Positions 3,194 to 53,093 are shown, counted from the first letter of the stretch. The stretch is 64,000 nucleotides of DNA from Desulfomonilia bacterium (GCA_050014195.1 JBEKDT010000014.1:75967-139966), one strand, 5' to 3'. Numbers and translations are program-made. Notes: generated from the letters alone by a model not told the origin.

Positions 3194-4489
3194 ATGGAGC
3201 AGGAAGCAAAAAAGAATTTCAGCTTTGCCAGTATTGCCATAAGTTTCTTTATTCTCATTGTGCTTCCCCTTACCATTACCGGCGTAATCATCAGCAAGGG
3301 TGTTATTAAGGTGGGTGAGGAGGCAACGCAGGCAAACTTGCGAATTCTCGACGACAATCAGAAGCTATCCATTGCGGGCAGGGCCCAGAATGTTGCTGAT
3401 GCTGTAGCCCAGTTTCTCACGGATCGGGAAAAGGATATCAGAATAGCTACCATCCTTCCAAGGGACGATCAGTCGTACACCACATTTTTAAAATCCAATA
3501 CCAGGGGTGTGATAGAGTCTTCCAATGTCGGGATCGTGAAGATCCCCGTACCGGTCTATCGGGAGATTGCATTCCTTGACAAAAGCGGTAAAGAGACCAT
3601 AAAGGTCACGGTCGACGGCGTGGTACCCAAGGACAAGCTTAAGGATATGTCCAGTCCTGTTACTGGTGAATTTGGTGCCGAGGATTATTTCCAGAAGGCT
3701 AAACAGCTCGCACCGGGAGAAATCTACCTGGGGCCGGTCGTTGGATCCCATGTCACCAAGCAGGAGTATGACTCTGGCAAACAGTTCAATGGAATCATCA
3801 GGATGGCAGCCCCTGTCTTTGATTCCACCGGGTTTGCAGGTGTGGTGGAGCTTGCCTTGGATTTCAGGCATATCATGGAGTTCACGGATCATATCGTGCC
3901 CACTGAACCGGGTATGGTCTTCACCAAGGTAAACGCGGATGATACGAACTATACATTCCTCGTAGGACGTGACGGCTCGATTCTTGCTCATCCGGAACAG
4001 TACCTTATCAGTGGGCTTGGGCCGGACAAGAAACCCGTACCCACGATTGATGATAAGAATTACAATGAATTGATAAAGACCGGGGGCGGCGGCATGAATG
4101 TCCTCAATATGGGCTTCATGGATGAAAACCTCCCCAAGATTCATGCACTGGCCGTTTCCGGAAAGTCCGGATCATTTACCTATACGGTCGACAACAAGAG
4201 AATCTTCATAGCATACTCACACATCCCTTATTATGGTTCTGTTTACAGCAAACCCGAGGGATTCGGCTGGGTAGGCATGATGATCGATATCGACAAGTAC
4301 CACAAGCTGAGCGAGGATAAGGTTAAGGATATTCAACAGAAGGTTGAGCGGTGGCAGAAATCGAGCATCGTTGTGGTGTTCGTATCGCTCATTCTGTTGT
4401 TCATCATTGCATTGATCCTTGCACGTGGTCTGTACCGGTCAATACAGAAACGCGATGGCGCGGCGCCCCTTGGAGATGATGAGGATTAG
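3194..4489 (+). CDS. Membrane-anchored Cache-domain sensor protein without cytoplasmic output domain
   Basis: Two TM helices flanking a dCache-like region (AAPVFD, YTFLVGRDGSILAHP); ~20-aa tail after TM2. Confidence 0.65.
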   Translation: MEQEAKKNFSFASIAISFFILIVLPLTITGVIISKGVIKVGEEATQANLRILDDNQKLSIAGRAQNVADAVAQFLTDREKDIRIATILPRDDQSYTTFLKSNTRGVIESSNVGIVKIPVPVYREIAFLDKSGKETIKVTVDGVVPKDKLKDMSSPVTGEFGAEDYFQKAKQLAPGEIYLGPVVGSHVTKQEYDSGKQFNGIIRMAAPVFDSTGFAGVVELALDFRHIMEFTDHIVPTEPGMVFTKVNADDTNYTFLVGRDGSILAHPEQYLISGLGPDKKPVPTIDDKNYNELIKTGGGGMNVLNMGFMDENLPKIHALAVSGKSGSFTYTVDNKRIFIAYSHIPYYGSVYSKPEGFGWVGMMIDIDKYHKLSEDKVKDIQQKVERWQKSSIVVVFVSLILLFIIALILARGLYRSIQKRDGAAPLGDDED

Positions 4490-4626: not shown

Positions 4627-5478
4627 ATGTCAGCCAAGATACTGGAGAAACAACAGTTATCCGAAAGCGTGTTCAAAATGGTTCTCGAAGGCCCGAAGAT
4701 CGCTAAGAAACGGAAGGCCGGACAGTTCGTGGTCTTAAGGATACACGAAGAGGGAGAGCGGGTTCCTCTGACCATAGCCGATGCAGACCCGACGAAGGGG
4801 ACGGTGACGATCATCTTCCAGGTAGTCGGCAAGTCAACAGGCCTCCTTGCAGACCTCAATGAGGGCGATGTGCTCATGGATCTCGTAGGACCTCTGGGCA
4901 AACCCACCCACATCGAGAAGATAGGGACTGTTGCCTGTATCGGCGGAGGTGTGGGGATCGCACCTGTCTACCCCATCACCCAGGCCATGAGAAATGCAGG
5001 CAACCACATCATATCCATCATCGGAGCCCGCACCAAGGACCTGATCATCATGGAAGACGAGATGAAGGCGGTGTCCGATGAATTCATCGTAGCCACCGAC
5101 GACGGTTCTTACGGGTACAAGGGCTTCGTCAGTCAGGCCCTGGAGGATAAATACCTCATGCCCGGCAAGAAGATCGACATGGTGGTAGCCATTGGTCCCG
5201 TCCCCATGATGAGGTCGGTCTGCGATACCACCAAGAAATATAATGTACCTACTGTGGTATCACTGAATTCCATCATGGTCGATGCTACGGGGATGTGCGG
5301 TGCGTGCCGGGTAAGTGTAGGCGGCAAGACACAGTTCGTATGTGTCGACGGCCCCGAGTTCAACGGCCATCAGGTGGATTTCCGGCAGCTCATAGACAGG
5401 CAGAGGATTTACCTGACCGAAGAGAAGGAATGCTACGATCACTACTGCTCATGCAGACTAGGGAAGGGAGGCAGGTAA
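4627..5478 (+). CDS. nfnA: NADH-dependent reduced ferredoxin:NADP+ oxidoreductase small subunit (NfnA/SudB)
   Basis: AGQFVVLR, GERVPLTIAD, GGGVGIAP, MVDATGMCGACRV...CVDGPEF. Confidence 0.9.
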   Translation: MSAKILEKQQLSESVFKMVLEGPKIAKKRKAGQFVVLRIHEEGERVPLTIADADPTKGTVTIIFQVVGKSTGLLADLNEGDVLMDLVGPLGKPTHIEKIGTVACIGGGVGIAPVYPITQAMRNAGNHIISIIGARTKDLIIMEDEMKAVSDEFIVATDDGSYGYKGFVSQALEDKYLMPGKKIDMVVAIGPVPMMRSVCDTTKKYNVPTVVSLNSIMVDATGMCGACRVSVGGKTQFVCVDGPEFNGHQVDFRQLIDRQRIYLTEEKECYDHYCSCRLGKGGR

Positions 5479-5479
5479 C

Positions 5480-6886
5480 GTGGAAATGAAAGACAGACTC
5501 AAGATCCTCCGTCAGCCGATGCCGGAGCAGGACCCAAAGGTTCGTGCGCGCAACTTTGATGAGGTCCCGCTGGGTTATACCCCCGATTTAGCCAAGACAG
5601 AGTCGCTTAGGTGCATCCAGTGCAAGAATCCCTCATGTGTTGAGGGCTGTCCCGTAGAAGTCGATATCCCCGGTTTCATCTCGCTCGTCATGGATGGGGA
5701 TTTCATAGGTGCGGCGAAAAAGATCAAAGGTACAAATGCATTGCCCGCTGTATGCGGCAGGGTATGTCCCCAGGAAGCCCAGTGTGAAAGCAAGTGCGTA
5801 CGCGGCAAGAAGGGCGAGCCGGTTGCCATCGGCAGGCTCGAACGGTTCGTAGCGGACTACGAGCGGGCTGCCGGAGAGGTATCCATCCCCGCAAAGGCGA
5901 CCCCGACCGGCAAGAAGGTGGCTGTTGTCGGTTCCGGACCTTCAGGTCTCACTGTTGCCGGCGATCTGGTTCAGCTCGGCCATGAGGTCACCATTTTCGA
6001 GGCCTTGCACAAGGCAGGAGGAGTTCTTGTCTACGGCATCCCCGAGTTCAGGCTCCCCAAGGCCATCGTCGCCGCTGAGGTGGATTACCTCCGGAAGCTG
6101 GGGGTCAAGATCGAAACCTCGAGTGTCATAGGCAAGGTCTCAACCGTAGATGAGCTTTTCGAAGAAGGATATGACGCAGTATATCTCGGCACCGGCGCAG
6201 GCCTTCCTACATTCATGAACATTCCGGGAGAGAATCTAAACGGTGTCTACTCCGCCAATGAGTATCTCACACGCTCGAACCTTATGAAGGCATATAAATT
6301 CCCGGAATACGATACCCCGATCGTCAAGGGCAAGAACGTCGCAGTCGTCGGCGGCGGGAATGTTGCCATGGACTCTGCGCGCACCGCCATGAGACTCGGT
6401 GCGGACCACGTCTACCTCATCTACCGCCGTTCCAGGGCGGAAATGCCTGCCAGGATCGAGGAGATCCACCATGCAGAGGAAGAGGGTATCGAGCTGCATC
6501 TCCTGACCAACCCCATCCGCTATATCGGCAATGACAAGGGTTGGGTTGTTGGTGTAGAATGCCTGAAGATGGAATTGGGCGAGCCCGATGAATCAGGGAG
6601 GCGCAGGCCTGTACCCATGAAGGGCAGCGAATTCGTTATCGATATCGACACTGCGGTAATCGCCATCGGTGCAGGTGCGAACCCCCTGGTCCAGAGTACC
6701 ACACCGGGCCTTAAGACGAACAAGTGGAACTATATCGTTGCCGATGAAGAGACTGGACAGACGTCCCGAGAAGGTGTATTTGCAGGCGGCGACATCGTGA
6801 CCGGTGCGGCCACCGTCATCCTGGCTATGGGTGCCGGGAGGAAGGCTGCCAAAGCAATTCACCAGTATTTGATGTCAAAGAAATAA
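5480..6886 (+). CDS. nfnB: NfnB / GltA-like large subunit
   Basis: RCIQCKNPSCVEGCPV, CGRVCPQEAQCE, GSGPSGL, GGGNVAMD, FAGGDIVTG; directly after nfnA. Confidence 0.9.
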   Translation: MEMKDRLKILRQPMPEQDPKVRARNFDEVPLGYTPDLAKTESLRCIQCKNPSCVEGCPVEVDIPGFISLVMDGDFIGAAKKIKGTNALPAVCGRVCPQEAQCESKCVRGKKGEPVAIGRLERFVADYERAAGEVSIPAKATPTGKKVAVVGSGPSGLTVAGDLVQLGHEVTIFEALHKAGGVLVYGIPEFRLPKAIVAAEVDYLRKLGVKIETSSVIGKVSTVDELFEEGYDAVYLGTGAGLPTFMNIPGENLNGVYSANEYLTRSNLMKAYKFPEYDTPIVKGKNVAVVGGGNVAMDSARTAMRLGADHVYLIYRRSRAEMPARIEEIHHAEEEGIELHLLTNPIRYIGNDKGWVVGVECLKMELGEPDESGRRRPVPMKGSEFVIDIDTAVIAIGAGANPLVQSTTPGLKTNKWNYIVADEETGQTSREGVFAGGDIVTGAATVILAMGAGRKAAKAIHQYLMSKK

Positions 6887-17128: not shown

Positions 17129-17677
17129 TTACTCGTCTTGGAGGATAACCTTTGACAAGTCTGGCCTGGCCCGAGGGAGGGTGATTTGTATTCGAGTCCC
17201 GGCAGGTCCGCTTGCAGGGTCGGCGTTTGATTCGATGGTCAAATTGCCAGAATGTAATTTCACGGCCCCATAGGCGAACGGCAGCCCCAGGCCTGTCCCC
17301 TCACCAACGGGTTTTGTGGTGAAAAAGGGGGTGAAAAGCTTGTCCATATTCTCTCTCGAAATACCCCTGCCGGTATCTTGAATTATAATGACGACCTGGT
17401 CAACGCCACCTTGAACGCTTACAGCCAGTTCGCCTCCGTCCGGCATGGCCTCTATGGCATTGGTCTGAAGGTTCACCAGTGCCTTGAAGACCCGTTCTTC
17501 ATCAATCCAAACCGAAGGGTCTGAAATATCCGTTGTCATTGATATTCGGATGTTATCCGGCTTTGGTAGGCTCCGGATGCTCTCTTCAGTCAGGGCGACG
17601 ATATCCGTCTCCCTGCGTTTCAACCCCTGCAGGGCGGATTTTATATTTTCTTCATAATCAATGATATTCCTATCCAT
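17129..17677 (-). CDS. Stand-alone HATPase_c domain (histidine-kinase catalytic domain lacking HisKA)
   Basis: NAIEAM, DTGRGI, FFTTKPVGEGTGLGL boxes; no H-box. Confidence 0.75.
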   Translation of the reverse strand: MDRNIIDYEENIKSALQGLKRRETDIVALTEESIRSLPKPDNIRISMTTDISDPSVWIDEERVFKALVNLQTNAIEAMPDGGELAVSVQGGVDQVVIIIQDTGRGISRENMDKLFTPFFTTKPVGEGTGLGLPFAYGAVKLHSGNLTIESNADPASGPAGTRIQITLPRARPDLSKVILQDE

Positions 17678-40973: not shown

Positions 40974-40985
40974 TTGACCGTTACA

Positions 40986-41037
40986 AAGGGATGGAGTTCC
41001 CCTGACAAACGCCCGGGCCGGGCTGATAACTCCTACC
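40986..41037 (+). ncRNA. Fluoride (crcB) riboswitch #1
   Basis: GGGATGGAGTTCCCC...AAACGC...GCTGATAACTCCTAC matches the crcB consensus. Confidence 0.85.
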
Positions 41038-41378
41038 ACGCGGCGGTAGAGTTGAAGCTGTGCGTCCGCATCATGGCCCAGGAGGTGTTTGTCTCATGAC
41101 TTTCCACAGCATATTATTTGAAAGAACTGAAGATAGCACAAAAAAAGAATCGCTTGAAGCGCCCGCCTTTTTTGTTGATTTGAATCTTGATCAGGTTATC
41201 GACACCATCACGGCCGGCAGGAAGGAATATAATTTAAAGCCGTTTTTTTACACTTCCCTGTCCGATATCGACACGATCAAGTATCGTCATGAAATAATGC
41301 AGGATCTGGAAAATAAAACGGAAGTATGTACTTTACGCAATAATTGCTCTTTCATCCCCAATGCCTCCATCTGGTGCC

Positions 41379-41528
41379 TTACTTACTTTGGCCCTTTGAT
41401 GGTTTTTTCTTTTTCAATGATTCCTTGACTGCGTCCTGCCAATCGCCATCAATTTTAAGTAATTTAGGTTTTGGACCAGGGGCCGTAATTTTGGCTCTAC
41501 GCCTCTTTGTATGACAGATATCACTCAT
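41379..41528 (-). CDS. Small basic IS passenger peptide (49 aa)
   Basis: [49 protein letters not shown] with AAGGGAG RBS; below the ORF-track cutoff. Confidence 0.55.
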
Positions 41529-41706
41529 GCCGTATGTTCTCCCTTATGTAACTGCTGGCATAATTACTATTGACAGTTACGGCAAAGGTTATTAAGCAGA
41601 AGACAACCATGATGGCATTTCTTATGGATCGGATGGAATTTCCTTGTATTTCAATATCAATGGTGATACAGTAACGACAGGTCAAATAAATGGGAGGTGA
41701 TGATTT

Positions 41707-42120
41707 ATGAGTTTCGAGATTTTCTCTCGCAAAGCAACATATCGTGGAGTCCCGTCTGTAACGTTTACGAAGACAGGCCGAATGGCATTTAATAAGGCCG
41801 CAACTGCTATCTTTGAAAAGAATGCAGTGGAGAACGTCCTCCTGCTGTGGGATAAAGACAAACGACTTATTGGGGTGCGGCCCATAACTAAGAAGGATAA
41901 CCGGGCTTATTTTGTGAGCGCTGGGACTAGAAAAAACGGGTGTGGATTCACAGCAATGACTTTTGTTAAGTACATTGGACTTGATATTTCGAGTTCTAGG
42001 GCTTTTCCTACCCGTTGGGATGAGCTGGAAGAAATGTTTTTGATTGAAGTGCCGGAAGAATATCTTAATAAGGATGGTGTCCCATCGAAGGGAAAAAAGA
42101 AACCAACTGAGGGAGCCTAA
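41707..42120 (+). CDS. Hypothetical IS passenger protein (137 aa)
   Basis: Strong GGGAGGT RBS; no family recognised. Confidence 0.7.
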   Translation: MSFEIFSRKATYRGVPSVTFTKTGRMAFNKAATAIFEKNAVENVLLLWDKDKRLIGVRPITKKDNRAYFVSAGTRKNGCGFTAMTFVKYIGLDISSSRAFPTRWDELEEMFLIEVPEEYLNKDGVPSKGKKKPTEGA

Positions 42121-42195
42121 AAAATGTCTGCTGTAAAGACAGAAACCCCCTGATGCTGTAACATCAGGGGGCACATCAAAGAAAGGAGGAACGAC

Positions 42196-42285
42196 ATGTG
42201 CTGTAGGGTTCATCGTTCCACCAAGAGGATTGTGGTTACAATCCGTTTAAAATGGATTGAAATCACAATTGTCTTTCCTCCATAG
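42196..42285 (+). CDS. 29-aa peptide MCCRVHRSTKRIVVTIRLKWIEITIVFPP
   Basis: AAAGGAGG RBS 6 nt upstream; flanked by hairpins at 42145-42170 and 42312-42336. Confidence 0.5.
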   Translation: MCCRVHRSTKRIVVTIRLKWIEITIVFPP

Positions 42286-42348
42286 GGCCTAACGGCTCTT
42301 TGGGGAAGCATGCCGGAGAGCACTGCGCTCTCCGGCCTTTAACTACAA

Positions 42349-42447
42349 GCGGGCGTGGCGGAATTGGAAGACGCGCTGGCCTTGGATGCCAGTGGGTGCC
42401 TTGCTTAAGGGATAACACCCGTGCGGGATCGAAGCCCGTCGCCCGCA
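42349..42447 (+). tRNA. tRNA-like gene: Leu-type body, anticodon TGG (Pro), 30-nt variable region, no encoded CCA
   Basis: Acceptor GCGGGCG/CGCCCGC + A73; D-arm TGGCGGAATTGGAAGACGCG; anticodon arm CTGGC-CTTGGAT-GCCAG; T-arm GCGGG-ATCGAAG-CCCGT. Confidence 0.8.
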
Positions 42448-42493
42448 TCTTTATATATAAAGATAGCATCGTTTTATCATTTTGTCAAAAATT

Positions 42494-43480
42494 TCATATA
42501 ACCTTTAAAGATGTATCTTTTGGAGACTTATACATCAACCGTTTTCCCTCAGCTGAATGTATGGCTCTGATTACACGATCACCATCATTCAATGTACGAT
42601 TATTCCAAATAAAGTCAAATTGCCAGAGATAACGATGAAGATGTTCATGGCTGACATTATGGTAGATTCCAACTATCCCACGTTTTACAACTGCGAAGGA
42701 TGATTCGGCTGTATTGGTATGAACATCTCCACGAACATATTCATGCGTGGAATGACATACTTTATCATGACCGCCCATAAAGAAGGAACCAATTCCTCTG
42801 TATGCTTTATAATCATCTGTGATAATACGTGATCTAACATCTACTTCTTGTTTTATGGCTGAATGTAATGTTTCTCCTGTAACGTCTGCTACGACACGAC
42901 GTCTAATATGACCATTTCTTTCGACGGCTGCAAATACAGGAGTTTTGCTTGTCCCGCGACCTCGTTTATGTATCTTCCCATCTCCATAACGAGGCTTACC
43001 ACCTATATAGGTTTCATCACATTCGACTATTCCATTAAGTTTTTCTGTATTAGAATCTGGTGCCATTGCATAACGGATTCTATTCATCAGAAACAATGCC
43101 GACTTGTAACTAATCTGACAATGTCGCTTAATTTCCAATGCTGCTACACCTTTCTTTGAGGTTGAGGCTCTCCAAAATGCATAACACCAATGGCGAAGAT
43201 CAATCCGCGATTCTTGATATACTGTTCCAATTCTGACAGTATATTGATTGTTACAATCCCGACAACGCCACAAAAAACGCTTATTCCGCATCCCAGTTTT
43301 AGAATCACTCATTTTGTATACTTGTGTACTTCCACAATGAACACAGGTCGGCTTATCTCCCCATCTCTGCTTTTCAAAGAACTCAACGGCTGCTAGTTCA
43401 TCGCAACAAGCTAATGGCATATCTTCAATAATGTCAGATTTTGCTAAATTCGAATGGTCGATTTTTTTATTTTTCTTCAT
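42494..43480 (-). CDS. IS1595-family transposase
   Basis: Zn ribbon CVHC...CRDC, VECDETYIGG, IITDD, VHTNTAESSF, HLHRYL. Confidence 0.93.
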   Translation of the reverse strand: MKKNKKIDHSNLAKSDIIEDMPLACCDELAAVEFFEKQRWGDKPTCVHCGSTQVYKMSDSKTGMRNKRFLWRCRDCNNQYTVRIGTVYQESRIDLRHWCYAFWRASTSKKGVAALEIKRHCQISYKSALFLMNRIRYAMAPDSNTEKLNGIVECDETYIGGKPRYGDGKIHKRGRGTSKTPVFAAVERNGHIRRRVVADVTGETLHSAIKQEVDVRSRIITDDYKAYRGIGSFFMGGHDKVCHSTHEYVRGDVHTNTAESSFAVVKRGIVGIYHNVSHEHLHRYLWQFDFIWNNRTLNDGDRVIRAIHSAEGKRLMYKSPKDTSLKVI

Positions 43481-43488
43481 ATATTAAT

Positions 43489-43516
43489 ATTATACTTAAC
43501 GCAAAGCATTTGTCAA
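43489..43516 (-). promoter_or_regulatory. Consensus sigma-70 promoter of the transposase (near-leaderless)
   Basis: TTGACA-16 bp-TATAAT on the minus strand; ATG 8 nt after the -10 box. Confidence 0.7.
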
Positions 43517-44879
43517 GGGGCAAATGATATTTTTTAGCGTTTGCGTAAAGTACATACTTCCGAAATAAAATTCTCTTTGAGAATATAAAAACATTTGCAC
43601 AAGAAATGCGCGCAATGCGACAGCATCTTGCCCTGGTGGAAGAGCTTCACTACAAATACCACAAGGAAGGATGGTTTTTAGAAACAATAGATATTTATTG
43701 TGAAGCCGTTCATCGCCTGGTACACGAGTTAACCCTTGCAGATTTAAAATCGCGCGGCTTTTTAGCCTTCCGGGAGTATATAACGAACTATGCCAGATCC
43801 GACCATTTTATGTCCCTTTTAGCTGAAACGAAAAAGCTTAAAGCCGATTTATCCGCCGTAAAGTATTGCCTGCTCATAAAGGATAACAGCATCAAGGTTT
43901 GCACATATGAATCCGGAATTGATTACAGTGCAGATGTGGAGCAGACATTCGAGAGATTCAAACAGGGAGCGGTGAAAGATTACCGGGTCAAATTTTCCAC
44001 CGGGCCTGAAATGAACCATGTTGAAGAGAGAATACTGGATCAGGTAGCCCGATTGTATCCCAATATATTTTTAAGTCTCGATGATTATTACGCGAGGAAC
44101 GGCAATTTTCCAGATGAAACGATAGCCGTTTTCGACCGGGAGATACAATTTTACATCGCCTATCTGGAGCATATCGCACAATTCAAGCGAGTGGGATTAA
44201 AATTTTGTTATCCGAAAATTTCTACCCAGTACAAGGAAGTGTATGATTATGAAGGATTTGATTTAGCACTGGCCAATAAACTCATGAGTGAGAACTCATC
44301 CATTGTCTGCAATGATTTCTACCTGAAAGACAAGGAACGCATATTTGTAATATCCGGTCCGAATCAGGGAGGGAAAACAACCTTCGCCCGCACCTTCGGA
44401 CAGTTGCATTATCTGGCTACCATAGGTTGTCTCGTCCCAGGCAGAGAAGCACAACTCTTTTTGTTCGACAGGCTCTTTACCCATTTTGAAAAGGAGGAAC
44501 ACATCGAGAATCTCCGTGGTAAACTGCAGGATGACCTCGTCAGAATCCACAAGATTCTCAATCAGGCCACATCAAACAGTATTATCATAATGAATGAAAT
44601 TTTCACTTCCACAACACTAAAAGACGCTATTCTCCTGGGTAAGAGGATAATGGAAAAAATAATACAATTGGATTTGCTGTGCGTTTGCGTGACATTTATA
44701 GATGAACTGGCTTCTTTAAGTGAAAAAACCGTAAGCATGGTCAGCACGGTAGTTCCCGAAAATCCGACATTGCGAACATATAAAATAGTAAGAAGGCCTG
44801 CCGACGGACTTTCATACGCGATATCAATCGCCGAAAAGTATCGACTTACCTACGATTGTTTGAAGGAGCGGATAAAATC

Positions 44880-46451
44880 ATGAAGGCTTTCCTCATGTAT
44901 AAGGATCGTGATTTTGATCTCCAGCAGGAGTTGCCATGGAATGAACAAGCATTGACACAAGACCTGGAATTAAACACACTGTTTTCTGCCATGGCCCTCG
45001 GCAACACATTTTTGTTTGAAGTGGCAAAGAACGCTGTTTTGACCGGTTTCCATAATGATCCGGACACAATACGATATCGCCAAGATATTCTAAAAGATTG
45101 TCTGAAGAACTCTTCCATTGTGAGGGATATCTACGACATTGCTGTGGAAGCAATCGAAAGCAAGAGAAAACATTGGTATGGCATATTCAGACATGATTCT
45201 CCCACCTCGATACTGCATACTTCATTAGAAAAAATGCAGACATTTGTGGGCCTGCTTAAAAAAATAAAGAATATTGCTGATGAACACGCCGATAAATTCG
45301 AGTCGGAAGGCTTTAGGGCGTTCTTCGCGATGTTCGAAAAAGAACTTGGCGATGAATATTTTGCAGGCGTTCAACATCATCTAAGGGCGCTCAAATTCCG
45401 CAAAGGAGTTTTGATCAGTGCTGAATTGGGAACAGGCAACAAAGGTACCAATTACATACTTCATGAAACACACGAAAAAAAGCAGAGTTGGATGGAGTGG
45501 ATCTTTGCCGGAATACAGAGTTGGATGGAGCAGATCTTTGCCAAAAAAACGACCGGTTACACCTTTTATATCAGTGAACGTGATGAAAGCGGCTTCAGGG
45601 CCTTGGCAGGATTAAGAGACAGGGGGATCAACCACGCAGCCAATGCTCTCGCCCAATCTGGTGATCATGTTCTTAATTTCTTTATCATGTTGCGGACCGA
45701 ATTGGCTTTTTACGTTGGTTGTCTGAATTTACACGGGCACCTTGCCAAAAAAGGGGAGCCCATATCTTTCCCTCTGCCCGCGGCTCCCGGCGAACGCAGA
45801 CATTCTTTTCATGGATTATACGATGTCTGTCTGGCTTTAAACCTGGAACAAAGGATTGTGGGCAACGATGTGAATGCCGACAATAAAAACCTCGTGATAA
45901 TCACAGGCGCCAACCAGGGCGGCAAATCAACTTTTTTGCGAAGCATAGGTTTATCCCAATTGATGATGCAATGCGGCATGTTTGTGCCGGCTGAGTCTTT
46001 CTGTTCCAATGTCTGTGACGGTATTTTCACACACTACAAAAGGAAAGAAGACGTTACCATGAATAGCGGGAAACTTGATGAAGAACTCGGTAGAATGAGC
46101 GCTATCGTAGACAACATAACGGCAAATCCCATGATACTGTTAAATGAATCATTTGCCGCGACAAACGAAAGAGAAGGCTCGGAGATTTCAAGGCAGATAA
46201 TGTGTGCATTATTGGAAAGGCACATCAAGATTTTCTTCGTTACTCATGTATATACATTTGCGCATGGTTTTTATGACAAAAAAATGGAAAACGCCATTTT
46301 CTTGCGGGCTGAAAGGCAAAGCGACGGAGGACGAACTTTTAAAGTAATTGAAGGCGAACCATTGCAAACCAGCTATGGCGAAGATTTGTATAACGGGATA
46401 TTCGAAACCGACGCAAGCACTAAGGTGCGGGAGGCGCTGGACAGTGAATGA
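44880..46451 (+). CDS. MutS-like (domain V ATPase) protein B
   Basis: ATGA overlap with protein A; [30 protein letters not shown]. Confidence 0.88.
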
Positions 46452-48685: not shown

Positions 48686-48707
48686 ACATTCTCCTTCAGA
48701 TTTCTCT

Positions 48708-48757
48708 GACAGGAGTCATCAGCCTACCCGGCGGTTATGGGGGACTCCATCCCTGAT
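48708..48757 (-). ncRNA. Fluoride (crcB) riboswitch #2
   Basis: Minus strand GGGATGGAGTCCCCCATAACCGCC...GGCTGATGACTCCTG. Confidence 0.88.
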
Positions 48758-48900
48758 CTTCGTTAAATGTGTACTGTATTAAGGGTAAAGCTGTCAATCA
48801 CGAGCTGGAACATTCCATTAACCTCTCCAGCCGGAAATATCATTACCCTTGAGCACGTTTTATACTCTCGCCTTACAGGTTTCTTCATTCATCAGTACAC

Positions 48901-52813: not shown

Positions 52814-52835
52814 ATACGCTCCTTCAGATCTCTCT

Positions 52836-52886
52836 GAGAGGAGTCATCAGCCTGCTTGGCGGTTAAAAGGGGGACTCCATCCCCAA
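52836..52886 (-). ncRNA. Fluoride (crcB) riboswitch #3
   Basis: Minus strand GGGGATGGAGTCCCCCTTTTAACCGCC...GGCTGATGACTCCT. Confidence 0.88.
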
Positions 52887-53093
52887 TTCGGCAAAGGATA
52901 TGTATCGCGCAGAAACGAGATTGTCAATGTTGAATCATGAACAATGATTCGGACACATTGGCTGGCATGAAACTGAAGGACCTTGTTGCGTTCCGGGATC
53001 ATCCCCGGTATCCTTTTTTTTAAAGAATTCATATTGTCCGGGATGTAATACTTTACTGTGCTGGCAATAGTATATCCTTTAGGAAGGTACCCC

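Follow-up and report, generated by a model that had tools for sequence, protein, structure and literature searches.

Why should a small transposon carry a tRNA gene whose body and anticodon appear to belong to different amino acids? This question is raised by a 2,244-bp element of the IS1595 family (41319-43562) in a stretch of 64,000 nucleotides from a Desulfomonilia bacterium (GCA_050014195.1 JBEKDT010000014.1:75967-139966), the whole of which is called the window here. The left (41319-41340) and right (43541-43562) terminal inverted repeats, CGGAAGTATGTACTTTACGCAA and CGGAAGTATGTACTTTACGCAA, form a perfect 22-nt pair (100% complementary), and they are enclosed by an 8-bp target-site duplication, the size made by the IS1595 family, with copies AAATAAAA at 41311-41318 and AAATAAAA at 43563-43570. 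The uninterrupted target gene was found in locus L077 of genome G002, from the same genus as the window; both flanks of the element match it with 96% identity and overlap in exactly the 8 duplicated bases. The terminal 21-mer is identical in the related elements L015, L016, L018 and L030 and has 1-2 mismatches in L022, and the right inverted repeat was also seen on many peat-metagenome contigs with different flanks. L016 (3,289 bp) and L022 (3,618 bp) end as the window element does and have their own 8-bp duplications, TAAAGCAT and TATATTTT, respectively, which gives such duplications at three independent insertions. Because of the empty site in L077 and the shared ends with separate duplications in L016 and L022, the element is beyond chance.

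The interrupted gene is related to MutS. Its 5' part (41060..41318, plus strand, from the ORF list) has the left duplication copy as its last 8 bases, and its 3' part (43571..44883, plus strand) gives partial NCBIfam MutS/MutS2 matches below the cut-off. When the element and one duplication copy were removed in silico, an open frame of 523 codons was obtained, the product of which is 95% identical to the intact L077 orthologue. A fluoride riboswitch (40978..41042, plus strand; Rfam RF01734; 44.5 bits, gathering score 34) lies immediately 5' of this gene, outside the element, and is mentioned for context only. The element occurs once in the window's genome, and its G+C content is 41%, compared with 50% for the genome.

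Transposition is provided by a DDE transposase of 328 aa (42494..43480, minus strand) that matches Pfam DDE_Tnp_IS1595 (PF12762, 3e-36) and NCBIfam transpos_IS1595 (NF033547; 175.6 bits, cut-off 75); at its N-terminus is a zinc ribbon, Zn_ribbon_IS1595 (PF12760, 3e-11; 43.5 bits, cut-off 25.4). A promoter TTGACA-16-TATAAT precedes it at 43489..43516 on the minus strand and agrees with the consensus at 12/12 positions. These results show an active IS1595-family transposon, cleanly inserted into a MutS-related host gene. The original prediction of an IS1595 element of 2244 bp between 22-bp inverted repeats and an 8-bp duplication is thus borne out by both profile libraries, the ends and the duplication, and the recent insertion with intact ends that it had proposed agrees with the clean empty site.

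The remainder of the element is a cassette, read on the plus strand in the order 137-aa ORF, hairpin 1, 29-codon leader ORF, hairpin 2, tRNA. The three ORFs, two hairpins and tRNA-like gene first proposed are all present in their places. The claim that they form a cargo cassette held as well: the full set, including the 49-aa ORF, is kept in four further elements with common ends, the 137-aa protein of which is 62-73% and the transposase 69-82% identical to that of the window. The 49-aa lysine-rich ORF (41379..41528, minus strand), predicted as divergent, is conserved in the related elements, with relatives of 63-79% identity detected by tblastn in L015/L016, L022, L030 and L018, and has no match in Pfam, PADLOC or NCBIfam. 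The relatives also have additional, variable cargo, which lies not in the cassette but in the part from the transposase to the right end.

To see how far the protein and the tRNA travel together, 71 loci were fetched and reduced to 59 non-redundant clusters, 7 of which were too short to judge. In the 52 usable loci, a tRNA-like gene on the same strand within 400 nt downstream of the 137-aa homologue was found in 31 and none in 21. ARAGORN detected 16 of these tRNAs, 5 are of the window type, 3 were detected by model R2, which had not been trained on them, and 7 were recognised by eye. The last group has 8/4 arms, and 15 of the 24 pairs of its cloverleaf show changes on both sides, a value reached by 0 of 500 shuffles. 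Protein-tRNA loci often adjoin transposases of the IS1595 or IS1 type, and the unit recurs on related transposons of soil and peat bacteria.

Could the tRNA and small ORFs be decaying, functionless passengers captured by chance? Such a view agrees with the single copy in the window's genome and with the lack of the tRNA in some relatives. However, the order, spacing, leader length, anticodon and promoter are kept though the proteins are just 62-82% identical, a divergence that argues against the related elements being recent copies of one another, and by our estimate chance linkage in a genome with about 50 tRNA genes should be well under 1%, against the 31/52 observed. We consider chance capture very improbable. 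Relatives devoid of a conserved ORF-tRNA linkage, the outcome named at the outset as fatal to the cassette, were thus not what the usable non-redundant loci gave, and sequence comparison confirms the non-transposase part as a conserved unit with no random capture. As for a link to phages, none of 86 pattern-matched stretches in viral contigs encodes a relative, and the phage records searched gave no match. In the literature searched, no tRNA was found among the passenger genes of IS1595, and a protein-leader-tRNA unit of this kind has not been described.

The gene at 42349..42447 (plus strand), missed by ARAGORN in the window, is an irregular class-II tRNA that RF00005 detects with 47.3 bits (gathering score 29, model positions 1-71). 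It has a 27-nt variable arm, A73, 7/5 arms and no encoded CCA. Its body is like that of tRNA-Leu: the 5' half is 88% identical to host tRNA-Leu(UAG), the closest host tRNA, the five best host matches are all Leu, and A14, the A15/U48 positions and G18G19 at the usual place are present, with A73 kept in 5/5. The anticodon loop CUUGGAU gives UGG, for proline, and not a leucine anticodon (NAG or YAA); UGG is invariant in 5/5 whereas positions 37 and 38 differ. All five window-type sequences keep the consensus cloverleaf, with just 2 of 28 pairs changed on both sides because these sequences are close. The minimum-energy fold of the single sequence is no clean cloverleaf (z-score -2.1). The T-loop is non-canonical in four of the five, being ATCGAAG in the window and ATCATAC, TCCAAAT and TCCGAAT in others; TTC occurs in L030 only. 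Canonical T54-Psi55-C56 is near-universal in elongator tRNAs; a non-canonical loop may weaken the tRNA elbow and the translational use of the molecule.

One explanation would be an ordinary helper tRNA-Pro of the sort that phages carry, which decodes CCA, a codon rare in the host, for the AT-rich element. Of the 54 proline codons in the element's genes, 16 are indeed CCA, compared with 10% in long host ORFs, and the low G+C content noted above fits. Yet the host already has tRNA-Pro genes with UGG, GGG and CGG, and the class-II, Leu-like body has an acceptor end unlike theirs, G1:C72 instead of the C1:G72 with A73 found in all three (start CGGG, end CCCGA). Moreover, mismatch is just as marked in the sister modules, whose tRNAs are for other codons, and the heavy negative control described below, with a predicted antisense promoter and a minus-strand terminator, does not fit a helper. 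This explanation is therefore unlikely, in our judgement.

As typed from the genes, the mismatch between body and anticodon is systematic across modules. Class-II bodies carry UGG, UAU or UUU, and the serine anticodons GCU, ACU or CGA are found on short class-I bodies; several of these class-I bodies are Arg-like by similarity to host tRNAs, including all three with 6-nt anticodon loops, and others are of no clear type. GCU is present in six class-I tRNAs despite different acceptor stems; tRNAs of this type have canonical D- and T-loops and varying discriminator bases. The 8/4 type, in seven related modules, has 6-bp D stems and in some cases C at position 33, and further tRNAs are 105-110-nt forms with insertions. 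The mismatched bodies belong to synthetases that ignore the anticodon or read it in part. Bacterial leucyl-tRNA synthetase does not read it, and therefore the Leu-like body, with A73, A14, A15/U48 and G18G19, should be charged by this enzyme. Mukai et al. 2017 (PMC5389517) state in their text that in E. coli the amino acid inserted by some irregular tRNAs follows the identity of the body, that two variants killed the cells, and that the genes are located near toxin-antitoxin and transposon genes.

Upstream of the tRNA, the 29-codon leader ORF (42196..42285, plus strand) has a strong Shine-Dalgarno sequence, a long internal hairpin and the end Pro(CCT)-Pro(CCA)-TAG. Its length, frame, invariant CCTCCATAG and end CCT-CCA-TAG are kept in 5/5 elements, and its predicted hairpins show compensatory changes. 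RGPP occurs in the ORF at this position in 12 further non-redundant loci, with synonymously varying Arg and Gly codons; CCA-CCA is used in 10 of the 12, even in GC-rich loci, and RGPP leaders with CCA-CCA precede tRNAs with the anticodon UGC, GCC, GAC or UAU. The R-[AG]-P-P core is absent from the window leader, which ends in ...IVFPP-stop. The general arrangement of the recurring unit is protein-(leader)-irregular tRNA. RGPP is described as the strongest arrest motif known, robust and resistant to EF-P (text of PMC12992588), and a C-terminal proline is reported to impair termination (text of PMC11890864).

Such a leader might itself be a toxin. It would stall with peptidyl-tRNA-Pro(UGG) and deplete this tRNA as over-expressed TnaC does, and the UGG tRNA of the element would replenish or replace it, giving an addiction module. 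The end CCT-CCA-TAG, directly 5' of a UGG tRNA in 5/5, and the CCA-CCA of 10/12 RGPP leaders both point to the UGG isoacceptor, and depletion of tRNA-Pro upon over-expression of TnaC, the stalling of which sequesters it, is documented in the text of PMC11890864. However, a Pro-Pro leader is paired with a UGG tRNA in the window type only, the RGPP leaders of the other modules being followed by unrelated anticodons, and proline charging is doubtful given the Leu-like body and G1:C72, where host tRNA-Pro has C1:G72. An arrest-peptide toxin with a tRNA antidote is consequently an improbable reading.

Further signals of control surround the tRNA. Hairpin 2 (42312..42336, plus strand), with a perfect GC-rich 10-bp stem, ends 12 nt 5' of the tRNA; 9 of the 31 modules have a GGAGAG motif within 60 nt upstream of it, and in most modules a stable hairpin folds there. 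A sigma-70-type promoter motif, TTGACA-17-TATCTT (42460..42488, minus strand), points into the tRNA from its 3' side and would give rise to an antisense RNA of some 310 nt; TTGACA-17/18-TAnnnT is found at the equivalent place in 5/5 related elements. Hairpin 1 (42146..42171), a perfect 10-bp stem with compensatory changes, has a T-rich tail on the minus strand only, with tails in 5/5 relatives. It therefore looks like a terminator of minus-strand transcripts and likely terminates the antisense transcript.

The 137-aa ORF (41707..42120, plus strand, from the ORF list) belongs to a large unannotated family, with 43 homologues and 1,290 cluster representatives at E<=1e-3, and has no Pfam family at E<=1. 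Its AF2 model (pLDDT 77.9) shows two beta-beta-alpha-beta-beta repeats in a predicted MraZ/B3-like pseudo-barrel. The best fold match was MraZ 1n0e_A (Z 6.2, rmsd 3.5 over 88 residues), B3 domains gave Z 3.2-4.5, and Foldseek returned B3 and MraZ with probabilities of 0.87-0.90 and E of 0.07-0.4; the matches are modest, all Z being below 8. A sequence profile of the family compared with host MraZ gave an hhalign probability of 0.4%, which leaves a link to MraZ (PF02381) unsupported. Homologues are rarely fused to HTH or C2H2 zinc-finger domains. The protein probably binds nucleic acid. PADLOC gave no match. A remote plasmid homologue bears the depositor's label 'putative plasmid addiction protein'.

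From these results we tentatively favour a mechanism in which the cassette is a tightly controlled mis-decoding tRNA module serving the transposon. The operon would make a deliberately mismatched tRNA, a Leu-type body with the proline anticodon UGG, acting at CCA/CCN codons either by inserting Leu for Pro or by competing with host tRNA-Pro(UGG). Because the product would be harmful, three layers would keep its output low: the DNA-binding-type 137-aa protein as a repressor, the Pro-Pro-stop leader (RGPP in relatives), which would stall ribosomes and couple tRNA output to translation, and the antisense RNA from the conserved promoter just past the 3' end of the tRNA. In this way the transposon would acquire a function, toxin-antitoxin-like or host-manipulating, that aids its persistence. 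Several observations count against mis-decoding: strong Pro-to-Leu misreading would also harm the element's own CCA-rich genes (16/54), the match between leader codons and anticodon fails to generalise beyond the window type, and 21/52 usable loci of the 137-aa family have no detectable tRNA. The non-canonical T-loops, the unclean single-sequence fold, the small number of compensated pairs (2/28) in the window-type tRNA, the modest fold matches of the 137-aa protein with no sequence link to MraZ, and the six UAU-type irregular tRNAs that the text of Mukai et al. (PMC5389517) reports as inactive in E. coli translation also weigh against it.

Possible, though in our view doubtful, is that the tRNA-shaped RNA does not decode at all. 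It could be an RNase P processing or stabilising signal at the end of the operon mRNA, a decoy or mimic of uncharged tRNA, for instance one setting off the stringent response or sequestering a tRNA-targeting enzyme, or a ligand of the 137-aa protein or the transposase by which transposition is regulated. This would suit the odd forms among module tRNAs (8/4 arms with 6-bp D stems, 6-nt anticodon loops, the 105-110-nt forms, C at position 33 in some 8/4 types), the T-loops of the window type, the varying discriminator bases of the GCU type, and, in the text of Mukai et al. (PMC5389517), the inactive UAU type and His-chargeable G-1 tRNAs unused for decoding. However, anticodons are kept within subfamilies while stems co-vary, most module tRNAs have 7-nt loops, D- and T-loops are canonical in the class-I GCU types, and a processing signal alone would need neither a conserved anticodon nor three layers of control.

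If mis-decoding is nevertheless taken as the working model, a wider and more speculative reading suggests itself, which we hold to be possible but unlikely as a whole. Transposons of the IS1595 and IS1 types in soil, peat and sediment bacteria would spread self-regulated editors of the genetic code, with Leu, Ser or Arg bodies, whose synthetases ignore the anticodon or read it in part, and Pro, Ile, Lys or Ser anticodons, gated by RGPP or Pro-Pro-stop peptides, an MraZ-like repressor and antisense RNA; mistranslation or codon-specific tRNA competition would be the toxic arm of an addiction or abortive-defence module. If true, this would be a new kind of RNA-based module of that type, and control of a tRNA gene by arrest peptides, here the leaders, would be without known precedent.

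Some known systems resemble parts of the element. As in RAPP/RGPP arrest peptides, 12 related modules have R-G-P-P near the C-terminus of small upstream ORFs, and the peptide is kept while codons vary. Known examples (PMC12992588, PMC10987492, PMC10951233, PMC7897499), however, control protein genes (Sec/YidC, TonB, copper factors), whereas here a tRNA is downstream, the module peptides are cytosolic with 16-45 residues, and the window leader has a Pro-Pro-stop end without Arg-Gly. With TnaC of the tna operon, where the text of PMC11890864 has the stalled ribosome controlling downstream transcription, the window leader shares its shortness, a C-terminal proline before the stop and an arrest that is here predicted from sequence; it differs in having no tryptophan-sensing residues or evident Rho site and a tRNA as the downstream product. 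Allo-tRNAs and irregular tRNAs of Acidobacteria, Clostridia and Proteobacteria likewise show body/anticodon mismatch, in part 8/4 arms and polycistrons (two tRNAs in L028); they too have transposon and toxin-antitoxin genes nearby and are found in soil and peat metagenomes. The window tRNA has 7/5 arms and a Leu-type body in place of the 8/4 or 9/3 arrangement of allo-tRNAs, and the text of PMC5389517 names no conserved protein partner, leader peptide or IS1595/IS1 boundaries.

The 137-aa protein may share its predicted fold of two beta-beta-alpha-beta-beta repeats with the MraZ, AbrB and plant B3 DNA-binding barrels; at the sequence level it has no Pfam family and no hhalign link to host MraZ. 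Toxin-antitoxin modules are built into Tn3-family transposons, and the proposed arrangement, a selfish or stress module beside transposition genes, would be the same, except that no protein toxin was identified in the window element. Streptomyces has mistranslating tRNA-Pro variants, natural tRNAs that misread codons as is proposed here; ours differs in combining a Leu body with a Pro anticodon, with no dedicated synthetase gene in the element. Some IS1595 subgroups carry passenger genes (ISfinder, family description). The window element has, like the insertion sequences of this family, one transposase of the DDE type that begins with a zinc-ribbon domain, short inverted repeats, an 8-bp target duplication and additional genes within its ends; what sets it apart is that these genes form a constant, regulated operon ending in a tRNA gene.

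The element is bounded by perfect 22-nt terminal inverted repeats (41319-41340 and 43541-43562), identified from the sequence and with a repeat finder, and is flanked by an 8-bp direct repeat, the target duplication AAATAAAA (41311-41318 and 43563-43570). The 328-aa transposase encoded on the minus strand (42494-43480) matched the Pfam families DDE_Tnp_IS1595 (3e-36) and Zn_ribbon_IS1595 (3e-11) as well as the NCBIfam model transpos_IS1595 (175.6 bits, cut-off 75), in agreement with the original prediction of an IS1595 element with 22-bp ends and an 8-bp duplication. With a G+C content of 41% versus 50% for the genome, the element is present in one copy in the 4.2-Mb assembly and splits a MutS-related ATPase gene located 3' of a fluoride riboswitch; once the element and one copy of the duplication were removed in silico, the frame was open for 523 codons. 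An intact MutS-related gene was found in a congeneric genome (G002, locus L077), to which both the left and the right flank of the window aligned at 96% identity, overlapping by exactly the 8 duplicated bases. The element is a real and recent insertion, its recency having been suggested in the original prediction. Three fluoride riboswitches lie within 12 kb (40978-41042, plus strand; 48703-48763 and 52831-52893, minus strand; Rfam 44.5-49.8 bits), the first of them directly upstream of the split gene, so the insertion probably inactivated a fluoride-responsive gene.

Two metagenome elements carry their own 8-bp AT-rich duplications: one of 3,289 bp with the same ends as the element described here (L016, duplication TAAAGCAT) and one of 3,618 bp with these ends at 1-2 mismatches (L022, duplication TATATTTT). 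In four peat metagenome runs, the right end was found with other flanks on many other contigs, where its summed depth was as much as about 30-fold that of the body of the element; the DNA studied here may itself derive from one of these runs. A clean empty-site joint was not seen in the contigs of the four DNA runs; the candidate joints matched 21-24 letters on the short side and were not relied on. Within 43493-43552, the inner part of the end repeat (TACTTAACGCAAA) recurs as an internal copy that is able to pair with the right end, and the resulting stem-loop, which covers the region of the transposase promoter (43516-43489, minus strand, 12/12 consensus), is a possible brake on read-through activation.

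Besides the transposase, the element holds a 49-aa ORF on the minus strand (41379-41528), a 137-aa ORF on the plus strand (41707-42120), a 10-bp hairpin 1 (42146-42171), a 29-aa leader ORF (42196-42285), a 10-bp hairpin 2 (42312-42336) and a tRNA (42349-42447) that was recognised by Rfam RF00005 with 47.3 bits against a gathering score of 29. This tRNA was missed by ARAGORN, probably because of its 27-nt variable arm, and the 49-aa ORF had no PADLOC or NCBIfam match. The end repeat of the window is present in five loci (L015, L016, L018, L030 and, with 1-2 mismatches, L022), and an incomplete contig (L020), in which the ends are not shown, carries the same cassette. As far as the contigs reach, the end-sharing loci keep the same order of parts: the 49-aa ORF (63-79% identity to the window), the 137-aa ORF (62-73%), hairpin 1, the 29-codon ORF, hairpin 2, the tRNA and the convergent transposase (69-82%). 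Additional cargo is variable and placed between the transposase and the right end (a DUF3800 protein in L016, three unknown ORFs in L022). Judged by this comparison of sequences, the cargo is a conserved cassette. DUF3800 proteins occur as additional cargo in two otherwise different module-bearing elements (L016, 4148-4924; L007, 6714-7577), the former having an IS1595-type transposase and the module of the latter adjoining an ORF with an IS1-like zinc-finger N-terminus.

The tRNA follows the 137-aa gene well beyond the window type. In many loci ARAGORN called a co-oriented tRNA gene 60-300 nt 3' of the homologue, and those among the genome loci were confirmed by Rfam. A covariance model built from seven 78-80-nt sequences found by eye (R1) has a proposed cloverleaf with an 8-bp acceptor stem, 6-bp D and anticodon stems and a 4-bp T stem, in which 97.6% of the cells pair and 15 of the 24 pairs are changed on both sides, a result matched by none of 500 shuffles. 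Together with a second model made from 13 class-I sequences (R2), it was run over 65 sources, which brought in insertion-bearing forms of 105-110 nt (L011/L064-L067 and L069). When the 71 loci were collapsed into 59 clusters at at least 97% protein identity, 31 had a tRNA-like gene within 400 nt downstream and 21 had none; 7 of the 59 have less than 300 nt of flank. The case of relatives keeping no ORF/tRNA linkage, which the original prediction had raised against itself, is contradicted by these counts. Independent detection of the 31 came from ARAGORN (16), from Rfam and alignment (5, the window type), from R2 outside its training set (3), and from the eye and covariation (7), while the matches of R1 and R2 to their own training sequences are so by construction. 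Run without filters, R2 gave no additional tRNA close to the gene in 19 of the loci counted as having none, and Rfam at E ≤ 5 found no tRNA in L004, L005, L008, L011 and L012 and only a weak Tymo_tRNA-like match in L007; L012 was counted as having none, its Leu-like sequence having been spotted by eye and confirmed by no tool. In a 4-Mb genome holding about 50 tRNA genes, chance alone would, as we estimate, provide such a tRNA neighbour in well under 1% of cases. As read from these gene neighbourhoods, the protein-tRNA linkage is general in the family. By tblastn, 12 of the 59 clusters have an IS1595-type transposase beside the gene, an IS1-type transposase (Pfam) adjoins the module in L044, L041 and L010, and a neighbour in L003 has an IS1-type Pfam match just under the cut-off.

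A different type of module occurs in G003, a genome of the host's genus (L006/L083), where a 137-aa homologue of 49% identity and a class-I tRNA with a CGA anticodon adjoin a normal tRNA-Leu(CAG) gene. The host genome itself has a second transposon (G000:C20:3181-5719, L086) with 32-nt inverted repeats, 88% complementary, and no evident target duplication; it holds an IS1-type transposase (3200-4162, minus strand), a 74-nt irregular tRNA (4253-4326, minus strand) that combines a class-I body with anticodon CGA, and genes for two proteins, an unrelated one of 281 aa and one of 84 aa rich in lysine and glycine. Irregular tRNAs thus ride IS1-type elements even without the 137-aa family; the 281-aa protein was considered as a relative of that family and rejected (hhalign probability 0.2%).

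The 137-aa protein had no match in Pfam, PHROGs (best E-value 0.17), NCBIfam or PADLOC, the sequence-profile search of the PDB gave a chance-level match only, and a protein atlas search returned unnamed clusters only. Homologues were 43 of the 51 candidates from a word-indexed search (40-99% identity), and an exhaustive profile search gave 1,290 cluster representatives at E ≤ 1e-3 and 348 at 1e-10. With the family profile, 10 of 104 pattern matches were fetched as genome loci (Thermodesulfovibrionales, Acidobacteria, a delta-proteobacterial MAG) and 61 of 221 as metagenome loci; none of 86 pattern matches in viral contigs was confirmed, and phage records gave no match. The distribution is sporadic: of 122 genomes from the class of the host, 3 have the family. 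Remote plasmid homologues lie near Abi_2 or DUF2971 genes and lack tRNAs; at 28-35% identity they are too distant for their function to be transferred. An AlphaFold2 model computed from a 24-sequence alignment consists of two beta-beta-alpha-beta-beta repeats (mean pLDDT 77.9). Foldseek found nothing in the PDB at E ≤ 0.001, its only high-probability rows being MraZ (1n0e, 0.90) and a plant B3 domain on DNA (7et6, 0.87). A search independent of Foldseek placed MraZ at the top, with Z 6.2 and an rmsd of 3.5 across 88 residues, and next to it four B3 domains (Z 3.5-4.5) and a fifth, ARF1 (Z 3.2); sequence profiles gave no support for membership in MraZ. Fusions to HTH or C2H2 zinc-finger domains occur in a few members of the family. 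With fair but not high confidence, we take the protein to be a nucleic-acid-binding barrel and probably a repressor.

The leader ORF of the five window-type elements always has 29 codons, a strong ribosome-binding site and an invariant CCT-CCA-TAG end. In the leader region RNAalifold predicted three hairpins, one that sequesters the ribosome-binding site, a long one within the ORF and one spanning the stop codon; 8 of the 64 pairs are altered on both sides. The ORF occupying the same place in other modules reads I(I/V)RNRGPPV; a motif scan of small ORFs gave 28 rows, 15 of them in leader position, and among these 15 the motif is strict RGPP in 12, with synonymous variation at the Arg and Gly codons and the two prolines written CCA-CCA in 10 of the 12. 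According to one study, RGPP is the most robust arrest core, resists EF-P and, among four-residue motifs, is the one that many bacterial proteomes avoid most (PMC12992588); another documents that ribosomes stall when the C-terminal residue is proline and that TnaC sequesters tRNA-Pro (PMC11890864). The small ORF thus looks like a stalling leader. In most modules a stable GC-rich hairpin stands a few bases 5' of the tRNA. A second minus-strand promoter, TTGACA-17-TATCTT (42488-42460), ends 12 nt past the tRNA 3' end and recurs as TTGACA-17/18-TAnnnT, with differing spacers, in 5/5 related elements; a T-rich tail accompanies hairpin 1 on the minus strand alone, also in 5/5. Together they predict an antisense RNA of about 310 nt that would cover the tRNA, hairpin 2 and the leader. 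Coinciding with this predicted transcript, long frames antisense to the 137-aa gene, the leader and the tRNA are open in L016 (1919-2869, minus strand, 316 codons) and L022 (2284-3201, minus strand, 305 codons); the counterpart in the window is broken into 230 and 68 codons, and this is probably a shadow frame.

By their sequences, the module tRNAs are SYSTEMATICALLY mismatched, body against anticodon. Class-II bodies, with a long variable arm, carry UGG (window type), UAU (L041, L046) or UUU (L059), and in short class-I bodies the anticodon is one of serine, namely GCU (six), ACU or CGA. When scored against host tRNAs, the window-type tRNA was closest to the five tRNA-Leu genes; several class-I tRNAs, including all three with 6-nt anticodon loops, were closest to tRNA-Arg, and others were of no clear type. 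In its 5' half the window tRNA is 88% identical to the host tRNA-Leu(UAG), and it has A73, G1:C72 and no encoded CCA, versus C1:G72 and an encoded CCA in the three host tRNA-Pro genes, which already supply UGG, GGG and CGG. UGG is constant in 5/5 window-type tRNAs, in which positions 37 and 38 vary, and GCU is constant in six tRNAs with differing acceptor stems. The single-sequence fold of the window tRNA is weakly better than shuffles (z -2.1). Elsewhere in the window, ARAGORN called a 92-nt 'tRNA-???' with a two-base anticodon (17158-17249, plus strand), absent from Rfam at the gathering score and probably a false positive.

The sequences show the anatomy and its conservation; as to function, we infer, at somewhat less than even odds, that the cassette may make a controlled mis-decoding tRNA. 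This reading is favoured because the body/anticodon mismatch is the rule across the family, because the bodies belong to types in which the synthetase leaves part or all of the anticodon unread, and because the anticodons are conserved and three separate brakes would surround the tRNA gene. Its chief rival, a tRNA-shaped RNA unused for decoding, is supported by the odd T-loops (the usual TTC is absent in 4/5 window-type tRNAs), by the 8/4 acceptor/T-stem forms and by the inactivity of some irregular tRNAs reported by Mukai et al. 2017 (PMC5389517). Strong Pro-to-Leu misreading is argued against by the element's own genes, in which CCA makes up 16 of 54 proline codons versus 10% in the host; the same frequent use lends some support to the alternative that the element tRNA is a helper tRNA, and avoidance of CCA by these genes was rejected on this count. 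We also considered that 'wrong' proline codons in the gene of the transposase or of the 137-aa protein might have to be read by this tRNA, and dropped the idea because, as judged from the sequences and alignment, the prolines of these proteins lie at family-conserved positions.

Should the tRNA decode, the cassette would amount to a naturally occurring means of regulated mistranslation that spreads horizontally, and to a new use of an arrest peptide, the control of a tRNA gene; should it not, it would represent a new class of transposon-borne, tRNA-shaped regulatory RNA. Since the cassette is only about 900 bp long, it is directly testable in E. coli, and its tRNA bodies may be useful starting points for genetic-code engineering. 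We found no description of it in the accessible full-text literature on IS1595 passengers, tRNA-like or non-coding RNA and mistranslating tRNAs on mobile elements, the coverage of which was partial, so that absence is not proven.

Irregular tRNAs near toxin-antitoxin and transposon genes were described in Mukai et al. 2017 (PMC5389517), and the association is repeated in a 2020 review. In L028, two irregular tRNAs stand in tandem 3' of a 137-aa homologue (UGC, 1099-1171; GCU, 1296-1368) and resemble the polycistrons of irregular tRNAs reported from peat metatranscriptomes, and in L027 a SocA/Panacea antitoxin-domain protein (4975-5538) just downstream of a module with a GCU tRNA fits the published association with toxin-antitoxin genes. 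In the sections of the 2017 report that were available, irregular tRNAs near mobile elements were left without genetic context or mechanism. The present locus supplies that context and a candidate mechanism: a precisely bounded, recently mobile unit with an antisense promoter and a conserved protein partner from an unannotated family of more than 1,000 sequence clusters, and with related modules whose leaders carry the strongest known ribosome-arrest motif.
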